Shown here piece after piece: positions 1 through 330 of a stretch of 64,000 bases of DNA. The first letter of the stretch is position 1. The number at the start of each line of letters is the position of its first letter. A model generated the notes under the pieces. That model had not been told where the DNA came from, searched no databases, and saw nothing but the letters and a program-made list of their open reading frames with translations. Origin of the DNA: Escherichia coli (GTDB taxonomy: Bacteria; Pseudomonadota; Gammaproteobacteria; Enterobacterales; Enterobacteriaceae); the NCBI RefSeq assembly GCF_022846255.1, contig NZ_AP025682.1; one strand, 5' to 3'. Made by a program: the position numbers and the translations under genes.

Positions 1-177
1 ACCGTTGGGACGTTGCGCCGGATCGAACCTATTTCAAGTCCTGGCTACCGGACGGGTGGTGCTGCAGGTGGTGCCCTGATCCGGAGTGCAACATCGTGGT
101 CCAACATACGTAAACCAGTATCGACAGGCAGTGTAAGGGTAAGGTGCTGGTGTTGCGCTCCTTAATAAGGAGAGCGG

Positions 178-267
178 ATGGACACGCTGACACAAAAGTT
201 AACCGTGCTCATTGCTGTACTGGAGCTATTAGTGGCTCTGTTACGGTTGATTGATTTGTTGAAGTAA
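178..267 (+). CDS. candidate small hydrophobic protein, 29 aa (MDTLTQKLTVLIAVLELLVALLRLIDLLK)
   Basis: ATG at 178 preceded by AAGGAG (167-172, 5-nt spacer) lying inside the perfect palindrome CTCCTTAATAAGGAG (158-172); stop TAA 265-267; GC-rich hairpin follows at 289-312. Below the size cut-off of the supplied ORF track. No homology search possible. Confidence 0.3.
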   Translation: MDTLTQKLTVLIAVLELLVALLRLIDLLK

Positions 268-288
268 CGGGCAAATTGAAACGCATCT

Positions 289-314
289 AAGGGGGAATAC
301 CGTTTCCCCCTTTA
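289..314 (+). terminator. putative intrinsic terminator hairpin (AAGGGGGAA-loop-TTCCCCCTT) after the small ORF
   Basis: 9-bp perfect stem with 6-nt loop, followed by TTTAATAAAG; the U-tract is imperfect. Confidence 0.35.
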
Positions 315-330
315 ATAAAGCTATACTCGC

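Follow-up and report, generated by a model that had tools for sequence, protein, structure and literature searches.

An unannotated 29-codon reading frame of Escherichia coli as, very probably, the toxin half of a single-copy zor-orz locus, and its probable kinship with dinQ and tisB

Does a very short reading frame at the left edge of a 64,000-nucleotide stretch of Escherichia coli DNA (hereafter the window, numbered from its first letter) encode a protein and, if so, of what kind and under what control? A sequence-only reading of this stretch had proposed a gene of 29 codons plus TAA, starting with ATG and running from 178 to 267 on the plus strand. The frame is found there, and its product is MDTLTQKLTVLIAVLELLVALLRLIDLLK. 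The Shine-Dalgarno (SD) sequence AAGGAG described upstream of it lies at 167-172, separated from the ATG at 178 by five nucleotides (AGCGG), and the product's portrayal as hydrophobic is in keeping with a GRAVY of +1.40. By size alone, a 29-codon frame is not above chance, the first 3 kb of the window containing 57 open reading frames of at least 20 amino acids in the ORF list. The case was therefore built on comparative and literature evidence.

One line of evidence is identity to a published toxin. The peptide agrees at 29/29 positions with the synthetic full-length ZorO of PMC6669753 (section 4.3), and an exact-sequence look-up of MDTLTQKLTVLIAVLELLVALLRLIDLLK returned 'Small toxic protein ZorO ... 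ZORO_ECO57' (UniRef name ZORO_ECO57). The ALLRL motif, necessary for ZorO toxicity (PMC6669753), occupies residues 20-24. The sequence-only reading had called the product type I toxin-like, and aptly so: experiments have established ZorO (z3289) as the type I toxin of the zor-orz system. This system was first proposed by prediction in 2010, its validation following in PMC3919570 and PMC5397157; toxicity, inner-membrane localisation, depolarisation, ATP loss and repression by a divergent sRNA have been published for ZorO (PMC3919570, PMC5397157, PMC6669753, PMC9860968). Judged by sequence identity, then, the gene is the already known ZorO toxin gene, correctly rediscovered rather than new. Its description as unannotated holds for RefSeq/PGAP records and fails in the sense of an unknown gene, zor-orz being named and studied.

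Could the frame nonetheless be a chance one, lying in a non-coding spacer or a regulatory RNA and yielding no peptide? The abundance of short frames noted above would allow it, as would the annotation: RefSeq places no gene at the zor ORF in any record listed, while plasmid relatives carry dinQ or dqlB annotation, and an NCBIfam search with the peptide matched no family at E values up to 1. Against this, the identical peptide is toxic when expressed, a FLAG-tagged peptide was detected from the native promoter elements of the EHEC copy, and the 29-codon frame is retained in 99.5% of 2,439 loci (PMC11264685). The strong SD at a 5-nt spacing also counts against a chance frame, as does the variation within the ORF, where most changes are synonymous; the leader target region close by, in contrast, is free to vary. 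Ten zor copies from eight strains carried six DNA alleles of the ORF. The comparison of synonymous with non-synonymous change that had been suggested as a check gave, across these ten copies, three synonymous variable sites and one non-synonymous (T3S), set against 23 and 64 sites, respectively. The antitoxin-target region of the sampled loci, by contrast, comes in three or more strongly divergent versions, most with a matching orz 5' end. This small sample points to a coding frame accompanied by a specificity-determining leader segment, and agrees with the 2,439-locus survey of PMC11264685. Because the peptide is identical to a published toxin, the leader and frame occur in about 3,400 of 5,426 genomes, and the variation is mostly synonymous, we consider the ORF to stand above chance, and a meaningless reading frame to be extremely improbable.

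[quoted passage not shown] Its features are as follows, with the positions relative to the mRNA start marked by a plus sign before the number.

[quoted passage not shown]
4-31, plus strand: predicted 5' self-inhibitory segment, +1 to +28 (fold, duplex energy and PMC5397157).
32-53, plus strand: processed 5' end (+29, window 32) and the conserved AAGUCCUGG block (PMC5397157 and alignment).
38-53, plus strand: element needed for optimal translation, +35 to +50 (PMC5397157).
76-105, plus strand: EAP region, +73 to +102 (structure probing in PMC5397157).
83-88, plus strand: conserved GGAGUG motif, +80 to +85, within the EAP region (read from the sequence).
86-105, plus strand: target of the Orz 5' end, 19/20 base pairs with an internal A x G mismatch at window 99.
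153-177, plus strand: predicted anti-SD/SD hairpin (folds of both mRNA forms).
178-267, plus strand: toxin ORF, product ZorO (ORF list, literature identity and exact-sequence look-up).
289-312, plus strand: predicted intrinsic terminator hairpin of the zor mRNA (folds, in agreement with published transcript lengths).

The mRNA start was placed at window 4 because the published RBS occupies +164 to +169 (PMC5397157). With this placement, the full-length mRNA would be about 310 nt (4 to about 313) with a leader of 174 nt, and the processed form about 282 nt (32-313). Published northern bands for zor, of about 310 and about 280 nt, agree with these two intervals, and a profile of zor mRNAs spans window 4-315 in nhmmer. 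The literature positions of the transcription start site, the RBS (+164-169), the EAP region (+73-102) and the 28-nt truncation (delta-28) all fit the window without adjustment. The zor promoter lies just beyond its left edge, with a -35 element TTGCAA and a -10 element TATAAT at 3969-3996 of L001, a genome 100% identical over window 1-520 from which the flanking sequence was read; this corresponds to window -32 to -5, the -10 element itself being at L001 3991-3996 (window -10 to -5).

In the leader, the segment at 4-31 pairs in prediction with the EAP region and starts with GUUGG, as does the Orz sRNA. The minimum-energy fold of the full-length RNA (ViennaRNA) pairs nucleotides 1-22 with about +74 to +102, and the duplex of the 5' 28 nt with +61 to +110 is predicted at -28.0 kcal/mol. 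Correspondingly, the full-length zorO UTR hinders translation while the delta-28 form promotes it (PMC5397157). The EAP region is a putative ribosome standby site, exposed after processing; the conserved GGAGTG/AG motif that it contains has been mutated and tested for its effect on toxicity (PMC11264685). The sequence-only reading had also described a perfect palindrome around the SD that could occlude it, and a GC hairpin at 289-312. The palindrome is present as a 6+3+6 arrangement, CTCCTT (158-163), AAT and AAGGAG (167-172), and extends to a hairpin at 153-177 of -10.6 kcal/mol; the proposed occlusion is backed by the structure probing of PMC5397157, which puts the RBS in a stem, and by both predicted folds. 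The GC hairpin has arms at 289-297 and 304-312, a TACCGT loop and a predicted energy of -15.3 kcal/mol, and is followed by UAAUAA. Both hairpins, that of the SD and the terminator, appear in the minimum-energy folds of the full-length and the processed mRNA (ViennaRNA), and these predicted folds agree with the published probing.

The antitoxin gene and both promoters lie 5-144 nt to the left of window 1, out of sight of the sequence-only reading. In L001, the Rfam model OrzO-P (RF02083) matched over its full length at 3857-3932 on the minus strand, that is, window -144 to -69, with 99.9 bits against a gathering score of 60. The divergent zor and orz sigma-70 promoters have a palindromic -35 element TTGCAA in common (L001 3969-3974), each with its own TATAAT -10 element. 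Placing the Orz start from the orz -10 element at L001 3939 gives a predicted RNA of 83 nt (window -62 to -144). The duplex of the 5' 20 nt of Orz with window 86-105 is predicted at -34.0 kcal/mol, compared with -15.1 +/- 2.3 kcal/mol (best -23.5) for shuffled UTRs. According to PMC11264685, Orz/zor pairing needs 15 or more continuous pairs or, when it is discontinuous with a single mismatch, 17 or more. The 19 of 20 pairs found here, with one internal mismatch, suit the discontinuous form of this rule; the longest continuous run is 13 nt, less than the 15 of the continuous form, so that the pairing case rests on the former. From this rule, which derives from OrzO/zorO, we infer that OrzP would repress a P-type zor.

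An Rfam scan of window 1-1200 returned only sub-threshold miRNA and isrH matches, arising from an inverted repeat at 322-376. Farther along the window, Rfam models detected two full-length SIB RNAs on the minus strand (49695-49837 and 50023-50165; 137 and 141 bits) and, with the Rfam gathering threshold applied, a CyaR sRNA (35502-35587, minus strand, 100.7 bits) and a TPP riboswitch (19232-19328, plus strand, 71.2 bits). As SIB RNAs are the antitoxins of the type I family Ibs/Sib, the window holds further small toxin genes.

Taken together with the literature, these elements suggest the following mechanism. The sigma-70 promoter just left of the window would give rise to an mRNA of about 310 nt with a 174-nt leader. 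In this primary transcript the first 22-28 nt or so would pair with +73 to +102 (EAP) and the SD would be locked separately in the CUCCUU/AAGGAG hairpin, so that little toxin is made. Loss of the first 28 nt, creating a new 5' end at window 32, would free the EAP region, which is thought to serve as a ribosome standby site feeding the structured SD. The divergent 83-nt Orz sRNA would pair through its 5' end with window 86-105, blocking standby and triggering RNase III-dependent decay. Any mRNA that escaped would yield the 29-amino-acid ZorO helix, which would enter the inner membrane and, if overproduced, depolarise it, lower ATP and stop growth.

These steps have been published for the EHEC zorO-orzO pair, with ribosome standby at the EAP region being a proposal there as well; for the P-type leader and OrzP of the present strain, we infer them from sequence conservation, folds and the pairing rule. 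In the EHEC system, overproduced ZorO localises to the inner membrane and causes growth arrest, depolarisation, lower ATP and hydroxyl radicals. Rescue by OrzO needs RNase III and does not need Hfq; in addition, binding of OrzO to the EAP region keeps the mRNA from being translated. Toxicity and rescue have thus been published for the identical peptide in combination with an O-type leader and OrzO. ZorO toxicity is an overexpression phenotype, and extra zor-orz copies have been found to improve growth in aminoglycosides independently of it.

The genomic setting offers a further view of the locus. Window 1-520 is 100% identical to E. coli O150:H6 FEX669 (NZ_CP065152.1), in which zor-orz fills a yehL-yehK spacer of 631 bp, and some or all of this interval finds a match in 5,240 of 5,426 complete E. 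coli genomes. The suggestion that the segment replaces the yehL region of K-12 proved wrong, an intact yehL ending 256 nt to the left of window 1. It is K-12 MG1655 that, together with strain HS, has a shorter spacer (306 bp), comprising orz, both promoters and approximately the first 31 nt of the zor mRNA before jumping to the sequence adjoining yehK. K-12 thus lacks about 325 bp of the spacer, an arrangement known from the literature as 'orz-only'. In EHEC-type strains the spacer measures 1,240 bp and houses two modules in tandem. Leader and ORF together are held by about 3,394 of the 5,426 complete genomes, with a median of two copies among carriers, and these counts fit the published split of 25% with one copy, 42% with two and about 30% orz-only (PMC11264685).

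Several other features of this region deserve mention. Directly after the zor terminator, window 322-376 is a near-perfect inverted repeat of 25+25 nt (TATACTCGCCATACTTCAAGTTGCA ... TGCGACTTGAAGTATGATGAGTATA), which resembles an ERIC/IRU repeat reduced to its two joined ends; no second copy was found elsewhere in the window, and at the K-12 deletion junction only the right end of the repeat (GAATTATTTAGAGTATA) is kept. The adjoining yehK (window 377-693, minus strand) is annotated as a frameshifted pseudogene in FEX669, appears in the ORF list as separate frames of 39 and 61 amino acids, and is also frameshifted in strain S88. E. coli MSB1_4I (L010 1093-1860) carries an IS1A within the zor leader, following mRNA position 128 or thereabouts, and this insertion interrupts both the toxin gene and the adjacent yehK/yehI region.

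Which of the two EHEC modules does this locus represent? Aligned with a two-copy strain, its orz is identical to orzP, and its mRNA is 98.4% identical to the EHEC-type zorP mRNA and 94.6% identical to the zorO mRNA. In the antitoxin-target region every difference is of P type, and P-type sequence is likewise found in orz, the promoter, the leader and codons 13 and 17. O-type sequence occupies codons 3 and 19, the loop of the terminator and the 3' flank; codon 3 reads ACG, giving the Thr of ZorO, where zorP has TCG for Ser. On these alignments, the locus is a single-copy module of the zorP/orzP type encoding the ZorO variant of the peptide. Since ZorO is the product of 72.5% of zor ORFs (PMC11264685), its occurrence on a P-type module is unremarkable. 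A single P/O crossover was considered as the sole origin of this pattern and was rejected, given that P and O alternate along the informative sites (P, O, P, P, O).

Such a mosaic might also mark the remnant of a locus in decay, produced by recombination between two tandem copies and left with a toxin that no longer properly matches its antitoxin or is no longer expressed. In favour of this, the locus is indeed mosaic relative to the two-copy, EHEC-type arrangement, the neighbouring yehK is frameshifted, and degraded or mismatched modules do exist, of which HH97 is an example. Yet both promoters, the leader blocks, the SD, the ORF and the terminator are all intact here, antitoxin and target are both of P type with 19/20 pairs, and the mosaic shows no clean single crossover. 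It also fits shared ancestral polymorphism, the same ORF allele being present in a third locus type, and a single full copy is the condition of about 25% of E. coli (PMC11264685). We therefore regard a decaying remnant as very unlikely and retain the reading of an intact single-copy module.

HH97 itself (NZ_CP116409.1, L006 707-1712) has a yehL-yehK spacer with an intact zor ORF and an O-type leader target; its sole adjacent sRNA gene is of the orzP type, reported not to repress zorO, and its second, downstream module has lost the start codon and has no orz. That locus looks like a toxin with a non-cognate antitoxin.

The natural reference for our locus is zorO-orzO/zorP-orzP of E. coli O157:H7 EDL933 (z3289/z3290; Fozo 2010; Wen 2014, 2017). 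Common to both are the ZorO peptide, the yehL-yehK slot, divergent promoters with a shared TTGCAA -35 element, the 174-nt leader, the RBS position, the EAP region, the SD hairpin and the terminator, and orz is identical to orzP. EDL933 differs in carrying two copies instead of one. Relative to its zorP, the regulatory half of the present locus, including the antitoxin specificity region, is of P type but is joined to Thr3 rather than Ser3; the terminator and 3' flank are of O type. Published Zor peptide variants comprise ZorO, ZorP (T3S) and ZorQ (A20S), and all of the differences from EDL933 fall within the variation catalogued in PMC11264685. The traits of a zor-orz locus found here are the peptide, the divergent Orz, its pairing, the promoters, leader and RBS stem, and the yehL-yehK position.

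A broader question concerns kinship beyond zor-orz. The sequence-only reading had likened the peptide to TisB and DinQ, a resemblance reinforced at the level of the mRNA. A blastn search in 'distant' mode with window 40-270 found no second-tier chromosomal hits in complete E. coli genomes and, in Zor-less genomes, nothing at E values up to 1e-3. Plain BLAST being blind to the relation with dinQ and tisB, a profile was required. The nhmmer profile, constructed from ten distinct zor mRNAs, recovered both dinQ/dql and tisB at significant E values:

Plasmid dinQ (L016): E 2.3e-16, 54.3 bits.
Plasmid dqlB (L015): E 9.5e-15, 48.9 bits.
K-12 tisB (L012): E 1.6e-9, 32.5 bits.
K-12 dinQ (L013): E 1.7e-7, 25.9 bits.

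Among reversed and shuffled decoys and the rest of the window, the same profile found nothing at E <=1. Searching reciprocally with K-12 dinQ alone recovered window 26-314 (E 5e-8), and a reciprocal single-sequence search from tisB did not recover zor. By these sequence searches, the zor mRNA has significant homology to the dinQ/dql mRNAs and a weaker one to the tisB mRNA. At the peptide level, ZorO compares with K-12 DinQ and TisB only at p of about 0.01 (composition-preserving shuffles), the cores of ZorO and DinQ aligning as LIAVLELL and LIALLELI. A link to shoB was not accepted, its similarity being of E 0.1-0.2 to tisB and absent for zor, which is not significant.

The similarity is concentrated in discrete blocks. 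Shared by the zor, dinQ and tisB mRNAs are AAGUCCUGG, AC(G/A)GGUGGUGC, ACAGGCAG(U/C)G and the anti-SD/SD hairpin; between zor and tisB the shared blocks are AAGUCCUGG, ACGGGUGGUGCCG, ACAGGCAG and, again, the hairpin. The AAGUCCUGG block is invariant in the alignment of zor, dinQ, dql and tisB. The SD hairpins remain paired though both of their sides differ (CUCCUU/AAGGAG in zor, CUCCAU/AUGGAG in dinQ and CUCCUG/CAGGAG in tisB). Mapped processed ends fall 4-5 nt before AAGUCCUGG in each case: +29 in zor, which aligns with U44 in dinQ, and +42 in tisB, the last counted from a deduced start site. The sRNA target windows of the three mRNAs are positionally equivalent.

The organisation of zor is also that of dinQ-agrB and dql: the sRNA is divergent and its target lies a long way upstream of the RBS, 5' processing activates the mRNA, and a hairpin sequesters the SD. 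It differs in that DinQ is a 27-amino-acid peptide with a GUG start, compared with 29 amino acids and ATG for ZorO, and the DinQ/Dql NCBIfam models do not match ZorO; in the comparison with dinQ, no LexA box was seen in the zor promoter. Orz resembles AgrB and AgrA only in the terminator (z about 3), and homology of these sRNAs was not accepted on such a terminator-only similarity. With tisB-istR-1, zor has in common a 29-amino-acid amphipathic, membrane-depolarising peptide, an inactive primary transcript with an active 5'-processed form, and a standby site targeted by the 5' end of an sRNA with RNase III cleavage. Unlike zor, tisB is under SOS/LexA control (LexA box at L012 2302-2317), whereas no CTG-N10-CAG box was seen in the zor promoter sequence; tisB also has an upstream tisA frame, whereas the zor leader is devoid of AUG. 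The full-length zorO mRNA, unlike the tisAB +1 form, is still weakly translatable (PMC5397157).

The strongest non-zor matches to the profile, dqlB (L015 667-762) and dinQ (L016 751-834), lie on conjugative MOBP plasmids of E. coli, L016 being IncX1, and each adjoins a recombinase gene. These plasmid genes look like intermediates between chromosomal zor and dinQ.

Previous literature has noted the similar organisation of zor, dinQ and tisB and treated them as separate families, and PMC11264685 states that a relationship between zor and dinQ has not been proposed, although zor may already have been counted among the dinQ-like genes in the dql paper. We think it probable, if well short of certain, that the mRNAs of zor, dinQ/dql and tisB are diverged copies of one ancestral module rather than merely analogous designs. 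The 5' part of such a module would have consisted of an inhibitory tail, a processing site just before AAGUCCUGG and a variable antitoxin-target/standby window, and its 3' part of the conserved ACAGGCAG, a compensating anti-SD/SD hairpin and a helix of about 27-29 amino acids. Under common descent, swapping would have affected just two parts, the promoter input (LexA or none) and the region that gives the sRNA its specificity.

Regarding zor itself, which has been studied since 2010 and whose population variation was catalogued in 2024, our results add nothing new. They illustrate that reading raw sequence can bring to light a genuine type I toxin missing from RefSeq annotation in thousands of E. 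coli genomes. For the present strain, the pairing of a ZorO peptide with OrzP-type control means that experiments on the O-type pair are being extrapolated to it. Should the link between zor, dinQ/dql and tisB be confirmed, results on processing and standby sites would become transferable between these systems, and a single profile could be used in finding further members.
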